From the NCBI GenBank assembly GCA_963840035.1, contig CAWIXE010000002.1:96001-160000 (forward strand): a stretch of DNA of 64,000 nucleotides, given 5' to 3'. The notes under the pieces were generated by a model that was given only the letters and a program-made list of their open reading frames with translations, searched no databases and was not told the DNA's origin. Of this stretch, positions 8,435-53,752 are shown one piece after another. This stretch comes from a candidate division FCPU426 bacterium. Lineage in GTDB: Bacteria > Oederibacteriota > PGYV01 > Palsa-1178. A program made the translations under genes and the position numbers. Every line of letters starts with the position of its first letter. The stretch's first letter is position 1.

Positions 8435-8998
8435 ATGAACAAAGCCGCCTTTATCGACCGTGACGGAAACCTGATACATGAAGTAGGTTATATCAGTTCC
8501 TTGGACAGGATTAAATTTTATAAAAGAAGCATTAAAGCCGTTAAGTTCCTTAAGGATAATGGTTATAAAATAATTGTTGTGACAAATCAGTCAGGCGTTG
8601 CAAGGAACTACATTCCGGAAAGTTTTGTGAAAAACGCGCACGCTAAGATAAACAATATGTTAAAGAAGTTTGGCTTACAAATTGACGGCTTTTACTACTG
8701 CCCGCACCACCCTAAAAAAGCGGTATTTAAAAGGTATCTAAAGGATTGTGACTGCAGAAAACCGAAACTTGGCATGGTTAAAGCCGCGGCAAAGAAGTTT
8801 AATATAGACCTGAAAAAGAGTTTTGTGATTGGCGATAAGCTGACAGATGTGCACCTGGGTAAGAACGGAAAGATGAAAACAGCGCTTGTTCTGACCGGGT
8901 ATGGCAAAAGCGAAAAGAAGTTAATCAAGACAGCATATGATAAGCCTGATGTTATAGCAAAAGATTTCTATCAGGCAGTGCGATTGTTGGTTTCGTAG
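8435..8998 (+). CDS. gmhB: D-glycero-D-manno-heptose 1,7-bisphosphate phosphatase
   Basis: HAD 'FIDRDGNL', 'VTNQSGVAR', Zn motif 'YYCPHHP...CDCRKPK', 'IGDKLTD'. Confidence 0.92.
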   Translation: MNKAAFIDRDGNLIHEVGYISSLDRIKFYKRSIKAVKFLKDNGYKIIVVTNQSGVARNYIPESFVKNAHAKINNMLKKFGLQIDGFYYCPHHPKKAVFKRYLKDCDCRKPKLGMVKAAAKKFNIDLKKSFVIGDKLTDVHLGKNGKMKTALVLTGYGKSEKKLIKTAYDKPDVIAKDFYQAVRLLVS

Positions 8999-9430
8999 AG
9001 CCGCCGCTTGCATATGCCATGAGCTCTATAATATGCTCATGACATATACATATCGAATGGCTGCGGCTCAAGGCCGGTTTTGTTTTCGTAGTCGCAGGCC
9101 TACGCTCCACCGGCCTGCGCCTAGATTAGGAATTGAATTACGCAAACGGTAGATATTCAAGACTACCGCGTACGCACCCCGATGGAGCGTAGAGGGTGCG
9201 ACTACACAAACGATAAAGCGAAGGCTGCAACGTTTGAGCCGCAGCAAGCAGCGGCTCTACAAGAACGGTAAAGGATTCGTTTTCGTAGTCGCAGGCCTAT
9301 GCCCCACCGGCCTGCGTCTGGATGAGGAATTGAACACGCAAACGATAGAGCCAGGTCCTGCCCTGAGACGGGCACGGGTCCCGTCTCTGCGGGTTTGATT
9401 TTCTGTAGAGACGCCAACTGTGGGCGTCTC
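8995..9430. repeat. Composite REP cluster: outer GTAGAGCCGC pair (8995-9260) enclosing an inner GTAGTCGCA pair (9088-9205), plus further REPs
   Basis: gtagtcgcaggcctacgctccaccggcctgcg ... cgcaccccgatggagcgtagagggtgcgactac, then gagccgcagcaagcagcggctctac. Half element at 9285. GTAGAGAC-type hairpins at 9356-9430. Confidence 0.85.
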
Positions 9431-17967: not shown

Positions 17968-18757
17968 GATAACCGGAAGCGGCCTTTTCCTCATAGCCGG
18001 CCCGTGCGTTATTGAGAGCGAAAAGATGGCGTACGGCATAGCCGAAGCCCTCGGCGAGATCACCTCAAACCTGGGCATTCCCTTCATTTTCAAAGCATCC
18101 TATGACAAGGCAAACCGCACTTCCATAAAAAGCTTCAGGGGAGTGGGTATTGATAAGGGCTTAAAGATATTATCAGGCATAAGGAAAGCATACGGCATTC
18201 CGGTACTGACGGATGTCCACAGCCCCGAAGAAGTTAAAAAAGCCGCGCAGAATGTCGATGTGCTCCAGATACCGGCGTTTCTTTGCAGGCAGACTGACCT
18301 GATAGTCGCCGCGGCGAAGTCAGGCGCGATAGTGAACATTAAAAAAGGGCAGTTCCTCTCGCCCCAGGAAATGGGAAACATAATTAAAAAAGCAGAAGGC
18401 GCCGGAAATAAAAACCTCATGCTAACCGAAAGAGGATTTACTTTCGGCTACAATAATCTCGTTGTAGACCTAAAATCAATAGCCCACATGAAAACCCTAG
18501 GATACCCCGTTATCATAGACGCCACGCACGCGGTTCAAAGACCCGGCGGAGCCGGAGACAAAAGCGCCGGCGAAAGGCAGTACGTCGAAGCCATAGCCAA
18601 AGGCTGCGTAGCAGCCGGAGCAAACGGAGTCTTCATGGAAGTCCACCCCAACCCGGAAAAAGCCCTCTCAGACAGGGACACGCAGTACAGCCTGGATAAA
18701 ATCGAGGAACTGCTCGGAACGCTGTTGGATGTGTATAAGGCGGTAAATAAGGTTTGA
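17903..18757 (+). CDS. kdsA: 3-deoxy-8-phosphooctulonate (KDO8P) synthase
   Basis: 'IAGPCVIES', 'KASYDKANRTS', 'QIPAFLCRQTDL', 'NIKKGQF', 'DATHAVQ'. Exact start (TTG 17903) uncertain. Confidence 0.95.
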   Translation: MKTKRRSSQTQEKKPLSKRYSEITGSGLFLIAGPCVIESEKMAYGIAEALGEITSNLGIPFIFKASYDKANRTSIKSFRGVGIDKGLKILSGIRKAYGIPVLTDVHSPEEVKKAAQNVDVLQIPAFLCRQTDLIVAAAKSGAIVNIKKGQFLSPQEMGNIIKKAEGAGNKNLMLTERGFTFGYNNLVVDLKSIAHMKTLGYPVIIDATHAVQRPGGAGDKSAGERQYVEAIAKGCVAAGANGVFMEVHPNPEKALSDRDTQYSLDKIEELLGTLLDVYKAVNKV

Positions 18758-18763
18758 TTTTTT

Positions 18764-18872
18764 GTAGTCGCAGGCCTACGATCCACCGGCCTGCGCCTAG
18801 ATTAGGTATTGAAGCACGCCAACGGTAGACGCCAATATTCGCACCCCGATGAGACGTAGAGTGTGCGACTAC
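18764..18872. repeat. Paired GTAG REP element (REPIN-like), empty copy
   Basis: gtagtcgcaggcctacgatccaccggcctgcgcctag...cgcaccccgatgagacgtagagtgtgcgactac, with terminal inverted GTAGTCGCA/TGCGACTAC. Confidence 0.88.
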
Positions 18873-18910
18873 GGGAACAATATCAAACAACTAGCGCACG
18901 CCAAGATTTA

Positions 18911-19527
18911 GTAGTCGCAGGCCTACGATCCATCGGCCTGCGCCTAGCCAAGGAATTGAAGCACGCCAACGGTAGATAACAACGCGCAGAATGGAATATG
19001 TTTATAGGGGACAAAAAAATGAAAACTACAAATACTTGTCCGGATTGTGGGGCTGAGATGTATTCGGACACTGTCTGCAAAAAGTGTAATTCCCGTATTA
19101 AAAATCATGAAGGTAGCGACGCTTTTAATTTTGAAGATATGGAAAAAAATATTGAAAAGCTTGCGGCTGAAAAACGTAATAATGAAAACATTGCCGTTTC
19201 GGGATCTTTTATAAATGAAAAAGAAGTAGATGCGCGTGTTGTATTGTTAAAGGCGTTATCAACGTCATTTGGAGTTTTTATTATTTTTTCTGTGGTTGTT
19301 ACAATGTTGTTTTTATATTTTGCTAATTTAAGGCCTGGAATCAAGGATTACTTTATGCGCGATCAGTTAGCTATTGGCGGTAGCTTTGTTGTTTCGCTGA
19401 TAGATTATTCAGTGATAGCGATTGCGACCTGGAGCGTAGCAGCTATTAGCAGACAAGCATATATAAGGACTGACTGGAAGCAAGAGCCAACGCACGCACC
19501 CCGATGAGGCATAGAGGGTGCGGCTAC
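18911..19527. mobile_element. Paired GTAG REP element enclosing a passenger gene
   Basis: Left half 18911-18988 and right half 19495-19527 match the empty copies. The ORF lies between them. Confidence 0.65.
19019..19507 (+). CDS. Hypothetical membrane protein with N-terminal CxxC-CxxC zinc-ribbon-like motif
   Basis: 'CPDCG...CKKC', two hydrophobic segments, visibly AT-richer than its neighbours. The last codons run into the REP. Confidence 0.6.
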   Translation: MKTTNTCPDCGAEMYSDTVCKKCNSRIKNHEGSDAFNFEDMEKNIEKLAAEKRNNENIAVSGSFINEKEVDARVVLLKALSTSFGVFIIFSVVVTMLFLYFANLRPGIKDYFMRDQLAIGGSFVVSLIDYSVIAIATWSVAAISRQAYIRTDWKQEPTHAPR

Positions 19528-19574
19528 GAAAGTACAAGGAATGAAATACAACGCAAAACAAATAGAGGTGTTTT

Positions 19575-20063
19575 GTGGAAAAGAAACACAGGCTTGATGA
19601 ATCTGTTTATATAGGCAAACTGCGCGCAACTTTTACGGTTTGCGTTGAAGACAGGCAGCCGCTGTTTAAAGATAAGGCCGTCGTAAACGTCATGCTGCAA
19701 ATCCTGAAACAAATCTTTGAAAAATATCATTTGCTTAACTGGATTTATACTTTCATGCCGGACCATCTGCATCTGATATTTGAAGGCGTCAAAGATAATT
19801 CAAACCTGCTGAAGGCTATGCATATGTTTAAACAGAAAGCTGGCTATTGGTTGAAGATAAATAAGCCCGGATTTAAACTCCAAAAAGATTTTTATGACCG
19901 CGTTCACCGGCAGGATGTAGTACTGGTTTTACAGATGCTTTATATCGCGGAAAACCCAGTAAGGTCCGGTTTGGTGAAAGAGTGGCAGGAATTTGAAAAT
20001 ACAGGGTCGTTAAGTTTTGATTTAAACGTTGAGATGCAGTCAGCGGATGTTTTAAAGCCGTGA
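19575..20063 (+). CDS. REP-associated tyrosine transposase (RAYT; Y1 HUH nuclease)
   Basis: 'TFTVC', HUH 'MPDHLHL', 'QKDFYDR', catalytic Tyr in 'YIAENPVRSGLV'. Flanked on both sides by GTAG REPs in opposite orientation. Confidence 0.9.
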   Translation: MEKKHRLDESVYIGKLRATFTVCVEDRQPLFKDKAVVNVMLQILKQIFEKYHLLNWIYTFMPDHLHLIFEGVKDNSNLLKAMHMFKQKAGYWLKINKPGFKLQKDFYDRVHRQDVVLVLQMLYIAENPVRSGLVKEWQEFENTGSLSFDLNVEMQSADVLKP

Positions 20064-20068
20064 TTTTC

Positions 20069-20184
20069 GTAGTCGCAGGCCTACGATCCACCGGCCTGCG
20101 CCTAGATAAGGAATTGAAGCACGCCACCGATAGAACATAAAATCCAACTGGCGCACCCCGATGAGGCGTAGAGGGTGCGACTAC
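20069..20184. repeat. Paired GTAG REP element, empty copy downstream of the RAYT
   Basis: gtagtcgcaggcctacgatccaccggcctgcg ... gcgcaccccgatgaggcgtagagggtgcgactac. Confidence 0.88.
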
Positions 20185-20336: not shown

Positions 20337-20760
20337 ATGACTGAAACTGATAAATATACGGCTTTTATCGATGGCGCTTCTAGCGGGAATCCCGGGCATG
20401 CCGGCATTGGCGTGGTTATATATAAGGGAAAGGACCAGATACTTATGGAGTCCAAGTATATCGGCGAGGCCACAAATAACGTGGCTGAGTACTCGGCGCT
20501 TTTACACCTTCTGGATATCGCCACCAAGCATAAGATCAAGCACCTTGATATTTTCTCCGACAGCGAACTTCTGGTAAAGAGGCTTCTCCGGCGAGTATAA
20601 GGTCAGGGACGAGAAACTTCAGGAGTTTGTAAAGAACGCCATCGCCCACAGGAAGACCATCAAGTATACGGTCACCCATATCCCCAGGGAAAAGAACAAG
20701 GAAGCTGACAAGCTCTCCAAAGAAGGATCCAAAAGGGGAGGCAACATCAGAAATGTATGA
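20337..20760 (+). pseudogene. rnhA: Ribonuclease HI family protein split by a +1 frameshift near 20583
   Basis: 'FIDGASSGNPGHAG...TNNVAEY...SDSELLVK' continues in the +1 frame as 'FSGEYKVRD...THIPREKNKEADKLSK'. Could be a sequencing error. Confidence 0.85.
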
Positions 20761-23329: not shown

Positions 23330-24196
23330 ATGAAAAAACTGATGATGTCGGCGCTGCTTTTAACGGCAATATGCGCGTTTGCCTGCTGCGCCGGAACTTC
23401 AGAGACGCTTTCCTCCGCCGTTAAACCTGATCAGGCGCCTGCCGCGGTTTCAGATGCTGTTAAGCCCGCGCAAACACCTGCCGTTGTTTCGGCAGCTGTA
23501 AAGCCGGCTCAAACGCAGGTTGTTGTTTCAACCGGAATTAAGCCGTCACTTACGCCGGACGCGGCTGATGATTCCTATCTGTATTATCCCGCCCATGTGG
23601 GCAATATCCTGTATCTTAAGGCGCGGAAAAAGGCCGAACCGGATAAGGAAGTATTTGTTAAGGCTGAAATCATAAAGATTGAAAAAAAGGACGACGGCGA
23701 TTATTTCTATTTTTACGGACCCCAGGTAAATGTGCGCTATTTGATCGGTATTGATAAAGACGGGGTATCAATGAGGGTGATAAAGTACCCGTTCCCGTTT
23801 TTTGATATTTCCATCGAAGTGGATATAAAGCCGAAGATGCCCATAATAAAGTTCCCGCTTAAAGCCGGGGCAAAGTGGCACTATGAAGGCCAGGGCGAGG
23901 CCCACCTTTTATTCATACCCATCACCAGGAACTTAAAGGCTGATTTTGAAATAGTCGAGAGGGTCACAAGGAAAACAGAGGCAGGCGACATAGACTGCTA
24001 CCACCTGAAAGTACTGCTTGACTCGGGCGACGGTAAGGGCGTAACCACCGAGGAGTACTGGTACGCGAAAGGCATAGGCTACGCCATAGCGGATACAAGC
24101 GGGCATGTGGCGTCGATAGTCGGATATAAGATTTTTGACGATACAACCGGCAAATGGAATGAGAAGATACCTGCAAACGTGGAATTATACAAGTAG
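23330..24196 (+). CDS. Exported or lipoprotein hypothetical with N-terminal 'SxAVKPxQxPA' repeats
   Basis: GGAGG RBS, signal peptide with Cys, 3-4 copies of a 12-aa repeat. 'KFPLKAGAKW...TEAGDIDCY...EYWYAKGIG' beta-rich domain. Confidence 0.6.
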   Translation: MKKLMMSALLLTAICAFACCAGTSETLSSAVKPDQAPAAVSDAVKPAQTPAVVSAAVKPAQTQVVVSTGIKPSLTPDAADDSYLYYPAHVGNILYLKARKKAEPDKEVFVKAEIIKIEKKDDGDYFYFYGPQVNVRYLIGIDKDGVSMRVIKYPFPFFDISIEVDIKPKMPIIKFPLKAGAKWHYEGQGEAHLLFIPITRNLKADFEIVERVTRKTEAGDIDCYHLKVLLDSGDGKGVTTEEYWYAKGIGYAIADTSGHVASIVGYKIFDDTTGKWNEKIPANVELYK

Positions 24197-24225
24197 TCGC
24201 ACCCTCTACGTTTTATCGGGGTGCG
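24193..24225 (+). repeat. Single GTAGTCGCA REP overlapping the upstream TAG stop
   Basis: gtagtcgcaccctctacgttttatcggggtgcg, the reverse complement of the element's right half. Confidence 0.8.
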
Positions 24226-34951: not shown

Positions 34952-35738
34952 GTAGAGCCACCGCTTGCTGCGGCTCAGACGTTGGATTTCGTAGTCGCAG
35001 GCCTTCGTCTCACCGGCCTGCGCCTAGATAAGGGATTGAATAACGCAAACGAAAGACGGACCAGACCACGTATGACCAGTTACTAATCTATTAAAATGAT
35101 GGTTGTCGGGAGGTGGTTGTGTTTAAAAAAATTACTAAAATTATTGGCGTTGTGATGGTGTTCGCAATATTAATTGGGATATTAGGCTGTTTCTTTGCGG
35201 AAAAAACGATACCTGGATTTGTTTCAAATATCGTGTGCGAAAAGATGTATGGCGACACTACTATCCCGCACAATTTGTTTGTTGATTACTTTGATATTTA
35301 TAATTATCAGATTATTAAGAGTGGAAAACTATCAAAGCAATCAGATTGTTATACAAAATATCTTAAAGAAACAGAAAGAATTAAATATTTTTCTGAAGAT
35401 AAAATCAAAGTAATCGACAATTATTACAAGGCTTGGAATGATTTAACCGATAACCCAAAAATAAACGGCCTTTTGAAGTGCTACAGGTTATCGATTTTAA
35501 AAAAAGAAATTGAAAGGTATTACGGCATTTAATTAAGTCGGATTAAGCGTGGTATTTATCTTGTTATAATATTCTATATGCTTTGGCCGCGAATTTTATT
35601 TCATGCAACTCCACGTTTTAATATATCAATCAATGACGCAAACGAAAGACGGACTAGACCATGCTTGCGCACCCCGATGAAGCGTAGAGGGTGCGACTAC
35701 CAATGTCAAAGGCGAGACACAGCAAGCTGTGTCTCTAC
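34952..35738. mobile_element. Nested composite REP element carrying a passenger gene
   Basis: Outer REPs at 34952-34976 and 35714-35738. Inner element halves at 34991 and ending 35700. Direct repeat at 35043-35070 and 35636-35663. Confidence 0.7.
35113..35532 (+). CDS. AT-rich hypothetical membrane-anchored protein (passenger)
   Basis: 139-aa ORF, GGAGG near the start, N-terminal TM. Exact start uncertain. Confidence 0.55.
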   Translation: MVVFKKITKIIGVVMVFAILIGILGCFFAEKTIPGFVSNIVCEKMYGDTTIPHNLFVDYFDIYNYQIIKSGKLSKQSDCYTKYLKETERIKYFSEDKIKVIDNYYKAWNDLTDNPKINGLLKCYRLSILKKEIERYYGI

Positions 35739-35820: not shown

Positions 35821-35934
35821 ATGGCTAATAATTACAGCAATTCTATCGCAATCAACACAGCCATTAATACGTCTGTCCTTCTTCCGGTAGTAGTCCTTTT
35901 ACTTACCGGGCTTCTGGTAGTCGTACTCGCCTAA
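35821..35934 (+). CDS. Putative branched-chain amino acid attenuator leader peptide (37 aa)
   Basis: AGGAGG RBS. MANNYSNSIAINTAINTSVLLPVVVLLLTGLLVVVLA has 18 of 37 residues I/L/V. Alternative stems follow. Upstream of the ilv-leu cluster. Confidence 0.65.
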   Translation: MANNYSNSIAINTAINTSVLLPVVVLLLTGLLVVVLA

Positions 35935-50355: not shown

Positions 50356-51034
50356 ATGGGGCGTTCAATTTCACTGGTTGCCATAAAAGGGAATTCCATA
50401 GACGGGGTCAAAAAGATCATAGGGTTGAGGAAAACTGGGAAAAAGACTTCAATTGGGGACAATCCTTTATGTGGCAAACTTTTGAAAAATGGGTGGTATC
50501 TGATAGCCTGCAGATACATCTGAAAGCCCGGTGTCAAAAAACAGCCTCATGAGGAAAGTTTCAGTTAATGCAAATGTGCTTGCGTTTTCTATGGATGACC
50601 ATGTCATGAACAGTACTTGTAAAGCCTGGAAAAATGGTAAAAACATATGGGCTGTTGTACATAATGGTGACAAAGACGTATTAAACATAACTGAGCGCGG
50701 GGAACTCCCGGAATTTTATGAAAGTATGAAGAAAGGTTATATTAAAAGACAAAAAGGCGCTGAAGACGATGTTGACCTGTTTTTTGATATGCCGGCAGAT
50801 ATTATAAGGGAGGTCACAGGGTTTAACCTTAATGGAAAATCCGCAGGAACCGATTTTGAAATATTGGATGCTGATTTTAGGTTGAAAATGTCGAAGTCTT
50901 TATCAGGAATTATGGTCTGGCTCGAAATAGCCGGAGTCGTTGTGGGTTTCTTGCTAACAATTGTTCTGGCAGTTATATTTGTTCCAAAAATACTAAATGT
51001 AATAATGAAATTTATTGCGGGGATTTTTGCGTAA
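50356..51034 (+). pseudogene. Hypothetical protein split by a +1 frameshift near 50507-50520
   Basis: GGAGG then MGRSIS...GWYLIAC. The +1 frame is open from 50507 (DTSESPV...) to 51034. No good RBS before 50531. Confidence 0.55.
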
Positions 51035-51042
51035 TTAACTTT

Positions 51043-51353
51043 GTAGAGATGGGACCCGTGCCCATCTCAAGGCAGGAAAGCGAGAGGCCCACAGGTGGCT
51101 TCTCTATAGTGTATTTGATTCTCGTAGAGCCGCCGCTTGCTGCGGCTCAGGGTTGGCAGGTATATGGTTGGTATTTGTAGTCGCAGGCCTACGTTCCATC
51201 GGCCTGCGCCTAAATTAGGAATTGATGGACGCAAAAGACGGATGGTTCACACCGCTACGTTGCGCACCCCGGTGAGGCGTAGAGAGTGCGACTACCAATG
51301 TTGCGATGTTTGATCTGTTACGACGTCTGAGCCGCAGCAAGCAGCGGCTCTAC
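51043..51353. repeat. REP cluster: GTAGAGA pair, then a nested composite (outer 51124-51353, inner 51177-51295)
   Basis: Same architecture as 8995-9260. The hairpins at 51043-51107 are reverse complements of those at 9356-9430. Confidence 0.85.
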
Positions 51354-51374
51354 AAAAAACTATAAGGCGGATTA

Positions 51375-52389
51375 ATGAAAAAAACAGGAATATTTATCAT
51401 TATCTTATCCATGCTTGTCGCGCCTGCCATTGCCGAACCGGGCTGTGATGATTATTATTTCGGACTGGATGTGGAGCAGGATTATAGGCAGGCTTTTGAC
51501 TGCTATCAGGCCGCTTCGTATAAAAACTACCTTGCGCTGGCTTCAATGTACTTAAACGGCGAGGGTGTCGGGCAGGATTTTGAGAAGGCCAGGGATATGT
51601 GGAGGCAATACACACTGACCAACGGCGGGGAATACTACGAAAGCGACGTCATGAATAAGTTCATTAATGACACTAGAAATAAAAAACATCCAAAGCGCGT
51701 GGATTATAGCGATCTTTCACAAGGCACACTTGACAGCAACTACTGGGTAAATGTACAGGGTTTATTGAGGGAACAGCAGCTTAAAAAAATGGCCGGCAGG
51801 ATGGCTTTTGAACTATCACCCGGAATGAAAGGCGATTTTGATACTATTTGCAGGCAATATGAAATTATAAAGGATAATGACAGTGAAAGGGCGTATGAGC
51901 TGTTTGCCGACGGCTCTATCAGGGACCAGGTACAGACTTTAACGCAGGTTTTTATACTTAACAGGCATAAAGACAGGTTGCCTGCATCTGGACGGAAATA
52001 TCATGCCGCAGATAAAAACCGCGGAAGAATACGCAAATCTGGATAAAAAGCTTAATGAAGCTTATGATAAAGCGGTTGTTGTGGGAGATGATTGGGTTAA
52101 GGATATGTCGGCTTCAGATGTGAATAAAATGACAGCGGCAAACCTGAAGGAATTCAAGGAAGAATATTTCAGCGCCCTTAAAAAGTCCCAGAAAGCGTGG
52201 ATAAAATACAGGGACGCGTGGATAAGCCTGTATAAAAAGAAAAAACTTACCATATATAAGAACAATGACGAGGTATTATATTCTGTCGGCGGCTGGTTGA
52301 CAGCCGAGAGGACCGAAGAGCTGGATTTTGTATCGGGGTATTGCAAGGAAAAGGTTGAGTTAAAGCCGTTTTCAGAGGAGAATAAATAA
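51375..52389 (+). pseudogene. Exported Sel1-like repeat plus LprI (DUF1311)-like protein, apparently split by a +1 frameshift near 51981
   Basis: Signal peptide, Sel1 'LASMYLNGEGVGQDFEKA'. Overlapping +1 ORF has LprI-like 'LDKKLNEAY...LKKSQKAWIKYRDA...LTAERTEEL'. Confidence 0.6.
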
Positions 52390-53156
52390 TGGCTTTTTGG
52401 AAAAGATCAGCGGTTGCTGCGGTCGTTTTGATGTTGCTTTCCGGATGCTGGCAAACCGGACCGGGGAAGAAAGCGGCTCATGAAGAGGGTAAATCCGGGA
52501 GCGCATCAGCGCAGGAAGCCGAAACCGGAATTCCCTCCAAAAACGCGCTGGATACCGCAGATCAGGTAGTAATTAAAGTCCTTGATAAGGATAAAAATGC
52601 CATATTCCAGTACACAGCTCCTGAGTCGGCCGGTATATACGAAAAATACCTTACAAAGAACGGAAAGTACGGTTATGTCCAATTTTCCGAGGCAGTGTCA
52701 GGGATGGCGTTTTTTGATGTTTACAATAATAAAACCATAGAATACAAGTATGATGAAAGCGGCGACGACCACAGCAGTTGGATAAGCTGCGCAATGAGTG
52801 AAACCGGGCTGGGCGAGGTCATAGAGAACCATGATCTTGAAAACAAGCTCATAAAAACAACGGTATATTCCATATCATTCACAGATCCGGCATATAAACA
52901 TGTAAATAAAACCATAGAGATACCCAAAAAAGTCCTGTATTACAACCCGGAAATCGAAGGAAGCGATTATCAGGACATGATGTTCAGCATCAAGTACCTA
53001 AATGAGGTGCCGGGCCTGAAAGACCTGAATATAATAAAACGGAAAATGGGTGAATATATAGTATATATGATAGCCTTCGGGGATAAATCTGTTAAAATAG
53101 ACAAGGTGCTTCAGGACGAGGATTTAAAGGACAGGATACTGAAGTTCTGCAGGTAA
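52389..53156 (+). CDS. Hypothetical lipoprotein
   Basis: Lipobox LSG-C, TAATG coupling, GAGGAG RBS. Confidence 0.65.
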   Translation: MAFWKRSAVAAVVLMLLSGCWQTGPGKKAAHEEGKSGSASAQEAETGIPSKNALDTADQVVIKVLDKDKNAIFQYTAPESAGIYEKYLTKNGKYGYVQFSEAVSGMAFFDVYNNKTIEYKYDESGDDHSSWISCAMSETGLGEVIENHDLENKLIKTTVYSISFTDPAYKHVNKTIEIPKKVLYYNPEIEGSDYQDMMFSIKYLNEVPGLKDLNIIKRKMGEYIVYMIAFGDKSVKIDKVLQDEDLKDRILKFCR

Positions 53157-53169
53157 AAAAAAGGTTCTG

Positions 53170-53353
53170 GTAGAGCCGCCGCTTGCTGCGGCTCAGGTTT
53201 GGTGTTTTGTAGTCGCAGGCCTACGCCCCACCGGCCTGCGCCTAGAGTAGGAATTGAAAGACGCAAACGACTGACAGTTCAAACCACCGCGTTGCGCACC
53301 CCGGTGGGTCGTAGAGGGTGCGACTACCAATGTTACAACGTTTGAGCCGCAGC
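53170..53353. repeat. Nested composite REP element with truncated outer right REP
   Basis: Outer left at 53170, inner pair 53209-53327. Outer right stops at gagccgcagc. Confidence 0.85.
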
Positions 53354-53368
53354 CATTAGACAGGGAGG

Positions 53369-53752
53369 GTGATTGTGAAAAAAATAAGGTATACACTATT
53401 TCCGGACCTAGCAGGGGGATTTTATAATAAGCAAGAATCTGTCCTTGCATTCTTACAGGACACTTTAATACTAAATAAGGCAAAGATAATACCCCCGCTT
53501 GATATATTAAATTCTATTTTTATGAGAGTCCCGGATATTTCAACCGGAAGGACTGCTGAATGGGAACCGTTTGAAATAAGCAAGTTGGAATATGGATTAT
53601 TAGTTAAAGAACTTGAATTAATTCAGGGGTTGCCATATAGATATGAATTACCACCGGAAACCATTAAGAATGCAAAGGACTGGCTTTTATGGCAGGGATA
53701 TAAATGGTATGCAGAAAAACCGGAGACAAAATATAGGCCGTATAAAAAATGA
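53369..53752 (+). CDS. AT-rich hypothetical protein
   Basis: 127-aa ORF behind GGGAGG, 'IPPLDILN...EWEPFEIS..EY..LV.EL'. Start may be GTG 53375. Confidence 0.55.
   Translation: MIVKKIRYTLFPDLAGGFYNKQESVLAFLQDTLILNKAKIIPPLDILNSIFMRVPDISTGRTAEWEPFEISKLEYGLLVKELELIQGLPYRYELPPETIKNAKDWLLWQGYKWYAEKPETKYRPYKK

Follow-up and report, generated by a model that had tools for sequence, protein, structure and literature searches.

Single foreign genes lodged in REP doublets of a RAYT-bearing bacterial genome, and a candidate route for their arrival

REP doublets of the bacterial genome analysed here occasionally hold a single foreign gene between their two hairpins. A genome-wide tabulation of half pairs, proposed in a first-pass annotation of the same DNA, assigns 34 of 49 left halves (L) to empty pairs with a right half (R), 13 to solo calls and two to gene-bearing pairs, each of which is unique and present in a single copy. 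The filled forms are thus rare but real, and the lodging of genes inside doublets is supported. We give a probability of about 0.5 to the reading that these genes landed at nicks made by a RAYT nuclease beside the feet of the hairpins, the involvement of the enzyme being what we infer from the positions of the junctions.

The locus that led to this reading lies in the window, the whole stretch of 64,000 nucleotides that was analysed, in a variable slot between kdsA and rnhA (Table 1; C1 and C2 denote genome contigs). Sequence and open reading frames agree with the order described in the first pass: kdsA is followed by a 109-bp empty doublet, a 617-bp filled doublet, an intact RAYT gene, a 116-bp empty doublet and rnhA. 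The locus is a REPtron, a RAYT gene accompanied by its own REP hairpins. These GTAG-headed hairpins flank the RAYT and are dispersed genome-wide (49 L and 46 R calls), and RAYT homologues elsewhere have flanking REPs with the same stems. The left hairpin of the filled doublet starts 147 bp after the preceding copy, which may be compared with the 146-bp period of a tandem array of nine empty doublets of the family at C1:663117-664403. The frameshift in rnhA is absent from contigs of both public read runs and is probably an assembly error.

Table 1. Positions of REP doublets, their cargo genes and neighbouring features (window coordinates unless a contig is named)
Feature	Position	Strand	Remarks
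kdsA, left flank of variable slot	18026..18757	+	
Empty REP doublet, 109 bp	18764..18872	+	L 18764-18795; linker K and variable stretch 18796-18839; R 18840-18872
Filled doublet 1, 617 bp	18911..19527	+	encloses cargo 1
Filled doublet 1, left part	18911..18988	+	L 18911-18942; linker and variable stretch to R-foot position
Cargo 1 ORF	19019..19507	+	162 aa, orphan
Filled doublet 1, right part	19460..19527	+	weak linker-like stretch 19460-19494; R 19495-19527
RAYT (Y1 HUH nuclease)	19575..20063	+	162 aa
Empty REP doublet, 116 bp	20069..20184	+	
rnhA, first open frame, right flank of slot	20337..20600	+	one-base frameshift near 20584
Empty doublet of the family	9088..9205	+	then solo L at 9285
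Solo R hairpin	24193..24225	+	its GTAG is the stop codon of the upstream gene
Filled doublet 2	34991..35700	+	L 34991-35022; R 35668-35700
Cargo 2 ORF	35113..35532	+	139 aa, orphan; N-terminal hydrophobic segment; GC 0.30
Two empty doublets	51177..53327	+	51177-51295 and 53209-53327; flank three accessory genes
Filled doublet 3, another REP family	C2:797762-798257		encloses a 135-aa lipoprotein-like gene
Loop inserts	C1:109425, 111052, 208215, 211070, 214128; C2:252594, 253374; window 8997-9070		

The product of the RAYT gene matches the Pfam profile Y1_Tnp (PF01797) above cut-off (E 7e-8); against the NCBIfam profile REP_Tyr_transpos (NF047646) it scores 65.6 bits, under the equivalog cut-off of 80 but still its best family (E 4e-18). 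Its H64-L-H66 and Y123..NP residues are invariant or conserved, with H64, H66, Y123 and N127 invariant in nine of nine aligned homologues; HUH and Y-x-x-x-NP are the motif of the RAYT class (PMC6006769). The earlier description of the gene as an intact RAYT is confirmed. The protein has no sequence match in the PDB and is the only member of its own subfamily found in the genome, other Y1 proteins being at most 36% identical. Open reading frames and profile searches revealed no tyrosine-recombinase integrase at the locus, where the Y1 HUH protein is the sole enzyme. The genome as a whole holds hundreds of GTAG hairpins in many families, together with several RAYTs. Several RAYT genes, at C1:545218-545769 in this genome and at L083, L086, L087, L088 and L089, carry their own REP hairpin within the reading frame.

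Empty units, of which there are 34 pairs, are REP heterodimers of the ordinary BIME-1-like kind, two different inverted REPs joined by a conserved linker, as the first-pass annotation had recognized. The hairpins share a loop and differ in their stems; the stretch that follows the linker is variable, as had also been stated. One correction concerns length: the empty spacers fall into two classes, of about 30-51 and about 81-90 nt. In the 109-bp doublet the GTAG head of R lies on the minus strand, and the folding z-score is about −3.4 relative to shuffled sequences. A CT dinucleotide 2-3 nt 3' of the left hairpin is invariant in 41 of 41 copies here and in 34 of 34 elsewhere (75/75); none stands at the foot of R. 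On its reverse strand the linker consensus matches the IHF consensus, which makes it a putative IHF site. Linkers within one mismatch of it number 22 of 68, against 2.2 in shuffles, a count in which the linkers are related to each other; the four linkers of the window have one to three mismatches, and the genome has two HU/IHF-family genes, HU and IHF not being told apart. Promoter-like sites in the linker do not exceed chance (three against 4.1 expected).

The family is present in three of 99 genomes of the phylum; the relatives G002 and G006 carry it, and the cognate RAYT was detected in neither. Solo calls comprise 13 left and 10 right hairpins, several of which are doublets with an insert in the loop, and half-elements missing one hairpin occur without cargo. 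Hairpins of 30-50 nt from other repeat families interrupt the loops of further REPs as well as those of L and R (Table 1). The doublets at both ends of the interval beginning at 51177 are 85% alike, flanks included. In the surrounding region (window 50531-53752), accessory genes (Sel1 repeat, LprI and orphans; GC 0.36-0.44) are split by near-identical nested REP clusters and are absent from G002 at the same site.

Cargo 1 encodes 162 aa from an ATG preceded by a ribosome-binding site, or 169 aa from 18998, and its stop codon lies inside the right hairpin. Its interior has a GC content of 0.36, against 0.50 in kdsA; two N-terminal CxxC motifs suggest a zinc ribbon, with Pfam matches below threshold (E 0.02-0.07), and one strong hydrophobic segment was called by script, a second being visible in the sequence. 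The earlier label of an AT-rich zinc-ribbon membrane gene fits these features, with at least one membrane segment predicted. The zinc-ribbon call also draws on look-alikes in the ESM Atlas (0.82-0.91), which are 130-174 aa long, so cargo 1 need not be truncated. No homologue was found among 5.8 billion clusters, 1.84 billion representatives and 98 other genomes of the phylum. Searches with cargo 2 likewise returned the protein alone, and among the 99 phylum genomes it occurs in this one only.

Cargo 1 had been placed within the variable stretch; its left junction, at 18984-18988, actually falls after that stretch, where the foot of R would stand. In the second filled doublet the left linker again reaches the R-foot position (junction 35072/35073), and, together with the gene on metagenome contig L120 described below, three of three left junctions lie within about 4 nt of the right-hairpin foot. 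On either side of cargo 2 a copy of the linker is found, positions 35632-35661 being identical to 35039-35068 at 27 of 30 nucleotides (score 50; the next-best linker reaches 24 and the highest of 87 control windows 22). The two copies are each other's closest match, which points to a probable duplication in place; the repeat is limited to about positions 16-45 of the linker, so that its start is not the CT. Among the top 60 direct repeats around genes genome-wide, cargo 2 is the sole case within an L-R pair, most hits being other repeats. The corresponding repeat at cargo 1 is not significant (score 21, null maximum 22). A third filled doublet, of another REP family, has a spacer of 446 nt, against 72-103 nt in simple empty pairs, and no linker repeat; gene and REPs are both absent from G002. 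At C1:693834-694504 an L-linker is followed by a 178-aa gene (GC 0.40; ORF6N-like by eye) that takes its stop codon from the GTAG of another L-linker, whose R is collapsed; this is possibly a further filled form.

A staggered cut would provide a route to such structures. The RAYT would bind each hairpin on the GTAG strand and cut just 3' of it, the predicted cut after the left hairpin being the invariant CT. Because L and R lie on opposite strands, two such cuts would open the linker as a staggered break; foreign DNA joined there, followed by fill-in, would yield L-linker-cargo-linker-R, as in the second filled doublet. Capture appears to be one-way and rare. Related enzymes act on the GTAG strand only; they cut at a CT 5' or 3' of the REP hairpin, and the cut end, linked to the tyrosine, is joined to a free 3'-OH (PMC8266576). 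The model fits the cargo 2 copy and the three left junctions, and it leaves unexplained the mid-linker start of the repeat, the missing CT at the R foot and the repeat-less third case. In addition, strains probably swap the entire slot through recombination in the core genes on either side. The broader proposal, that RAYT-REP doublets constitute a general HUH-driven gene-acquisition device in which single foreign genes, mostly for small membrane proteins and lipoproteins, would be sealed in at opposed nicks with the linker duplicated and could be swapped out again, strikes us as doubtful.

Alleles at orthologous sites, which come from different genera rather than from strains of this genome, show the slot in several states. 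The gap between the aligned ends of kdsA and rnhA is at most 341 nt in 17 of the 19 relatives in which both genes were seen. At this site G002 and G006 carry another RAYT with another REP family; an AT-rich lipoprotein-like gene comes after the first REP in G002, and the same doublet is empty in G006. Metagenome contig L117 has, at the same site, a RAYT homologue 63% identical to ours with the same L and R repeats; it starts inside a spacer that looks empty and is probably an empty form. Beyond the slot this contig (L117:840 onward) is 98% identical to G002 (L029:3647 onward), yet a different REPtron stands between kdsA and rnhA; whole REPtrons are therefore exchanged at the slot among very close relatives. 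On contig L120, kdsA is followed by L, by the linker as far as the R-foot motif and by an unrelated lipoprotein-like gene (GC 0.33), the contig ending before any R. Occupied slots thus contain three different AT-rich genes, or none, after the REP. The second locus is occupied in G006 by an empty doublet, one and not two, in the same place and orientation. In G002 that site takes up AT-rich genes with no visible REP; it is variable in other relatives too. Each cargo gene is confined to one of 99 phylum genomes, and empty forms exist in G006 and probably in L117, so the cargoes are not fixed ancestral genes lacking any empty allele. The first-pass proposal of gene capture holds up as far as these empty and differently filled alleles go, the part of the RAYT in it being read from the junctions.

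No gene-bearing L-R pair was seen among 22 viewed left halves (of 28) in G006 or nine in G002, a scan of a genome collection with the RAYT gave one locus with no cargo, and by eye 20 further stretches around RAYT-family matches in the taxonomic order had no gene lodged within a doublet. A pattern scan of metagenomes produced 14 loci, most of which repeat G002 stretches and two of which are chance matches in coding DNA; L117, L120 and L127 are independent. Two low-depth public runs, which share 9% and 5% of words with the genome and represent relatives, contained no strain-level empty allele of the first filled element. Two joints in these runs, 20118>19493 and 35051>35666, were considered as empty alleles and rejected, since their spacers belong to other loci (the second to the 9088 copy).

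The association of genes with paired REPs was examined genome-wide with a simple ORF caller, defining AT-rich genes by a GC content of up to 0.385 and leaving out genes of GC 0.385-0.43 and RAYT-like ORFs. Plain proximity to a REP was not enriched (23/108 AT-rich against 463/2422 ordinary genes), and a first test for REPs on both sides irrespective of orientation was not significant (p 0.10). In an orientation test devised after that null result, with three GC thresholds tried, heads-out pairs surround six of 108 AT-rich genes against three of 2422 ordinary ones, and the excess persists without the two discovery cases (4/106, p 9e-5). Heads-in brackets surround one of 108 AT-rich and 23 of 2422 ordinary genes. 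In three of the four extra cases the paired REPs come from different families, and three relatives lack one such mixed-family case at the orthologous site. No excess was found in G002, where 0 of 45 AT-rich genes were bracketed over 1.55 of 3.4 Mb; this is a short-read assembly that has fewer REPs, and the single case known from it fell at the edge of a stretch.

The main rival to landing at nicks is that the gene arrived otherwise, near-identical doublets were copied to both sides of it, and the inner hairpins were deleted at their feet. Doublets of the same variant do flank genes elsewhere (C1:211070/212629/214128, C1:109332/110955 and window 51177/53209), and both kinds of half-element occur, a linker-R that lacks L (C1:923536) and L-linkers that lack R (C2:185413, C1:107580). 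A hairpin deletion would likewise end at the foot, and a similar gene beside another RAYT, at C2:545095, stands at the same site in G002 and G006, and hence is older than its REPs. Each of the two or three cases would, however, call for two exact losses, and the heads-in precursor that it predicts brackets a single AT-rich gene against six heads-out, the proportions among ordinary genes being 23 to three; moreover, the second site in G006 has one empty doublet where two would be expected. We judge this history unlikely. Independent insertion of single hairpins on either side of AT-rich genes, to which we give very little credence, could draw on the solo calls, on the clustering of family copies and on the negative bracket test in G002. 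Under a uniform null, the two gene-bearing L-R pairs compare with 0.03 expected (P about 5e-4), a value that is too small because family copies cluster (nine adjacent pairs among 49 occupied gaps). Chance insertion accounts poorly for the duplicated linker at cargo 2, for junctions that coincide with the R foot, for the empty doublet that G006 has at the second locus, for the tandem arrangement of the two upstream copies at 147 bp and for a bracket excess that depends on orientation.

A cassette system, one of the two forms named in the first-pass annotation, would, if reusable, have the RAYT excise linker plus gene as a single-strand circle and reinsert it in other doublets, in the manner of an integron. 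Excision of single-strand BIME circles with capture of neighbouring genes has been modelled (PMC3333891), a direct repeat flanks cargo 2, and different genes occupy one slot. Against this, none of the cargoes turned up at another site or in another genome, neither arrays of several genes nor excision were seen, only two of 49 left halves are filled, the strain-level empty allele was not found in the two runs, and promoter-like sites are not above chance; at cargo 2 the linker copies match each other most closely, as local duplication would predict more readily than the arrival of a unit from elsewhere. We consider such a system improbable. A non-autonomous IS200/IS605 transporter with a passenger gene was rejected, multiple same-ended copies being expected where each filled doublet is unique.

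The system may be compared with several known ones. Capture by integrons, ISCR elements and Helitrons involves folded single-strand sites near single foreign genes, with HUH chemistry in ISCR and Helitron. Integron cassettes and IS91/ISCR/Helitron gene capture are named in PMC3333891; unlike these systems, the doublets here have no integrase, no array, no cargo seen twice and no excision seen. The E. coli REPtron (PMC3333891) resembles the locus in that a single HUH/Y1 gene lies between cognate GTAG REP doublets, which are also dispersed and tandemly amplified, and its site is likewise a replaceable slot, occupied by hicAB in some E. coli. Here, in contrast, the doublets enclose orphan genes at a hairpin foot, in one case with the linker duplicated; near-identical relatives have different REPtrons at one and the same site; and the RAYT is distant. 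BIME-1 or RIB of E. coli combines z1 and y REPs with a conserved L linker that often has an IHF site (PMC3333891), and both BIME-1 and REP heterodimers (PMC3733652) share with our units two inverted stem variants of one REP and a conserved linker. The spacers reported there are mostly 20-100 bp and non-coding, whereas a few here are 450-640 bp with a gene. Pseudomonas REPINs are, similarly, doublets of about 100 bp with tandem arrays and one RAYT per family; PMC3337134 and bioRxiv 10.1101/2021.07.10.451892 describe them as short and non-coding and their RAYTs as immobile, whereas G002 has two RAYT copies with REPs (L029:2792-3612 and L082:3179-3981) that are 93.5% identical over 821 nt at different loci. 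Their similarity suggests a recent RAYT relocation, contrary to the usual view of immobile RAYTs.

The system belongs to the REPtron family. A literature search, with subscription journals largely outside it, brought up no account of orphan genes lodged at the hairpin foot within a doublet whose linker is duplicated. Ton-Hoang et al. (2012) proposed that BIME units can sequester whole genes (codA-cynR, tnpA-REP), without a mechanism (PMC3333891). The locus offers a 109-119 nt substrate, a predicted cut at CT, a predicted linker-duplicated product and natural empty and filled alleles; with all of these defined, the capture idea is directly testable in vitro. The retention of RAYT genes by bacteria is treated as an open question in the literature (PMC3337134; bioRxiv 10.1101/2021.07.10.451892). 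If the acquisition-device reading were true, the host would benefit by being supplied with variable surface genes, and domesticated RAYTs would stay under selection for that reason; if the capture idea fails, the locus is an ordinary REPtron in an insertion hot spot.

Two further observations concern the surroundings of such loci. At L078, in genome G017, a related RAYT and REP pairs lie among genes that, named by eye, are restriction-modification-like. From window position 35823 onward, a short leader peptide and an attenuator-like region (function by eye) precede the ilv/leu genes and are conserved in the family, and the DNA just upstream of this leader varies among relatives.
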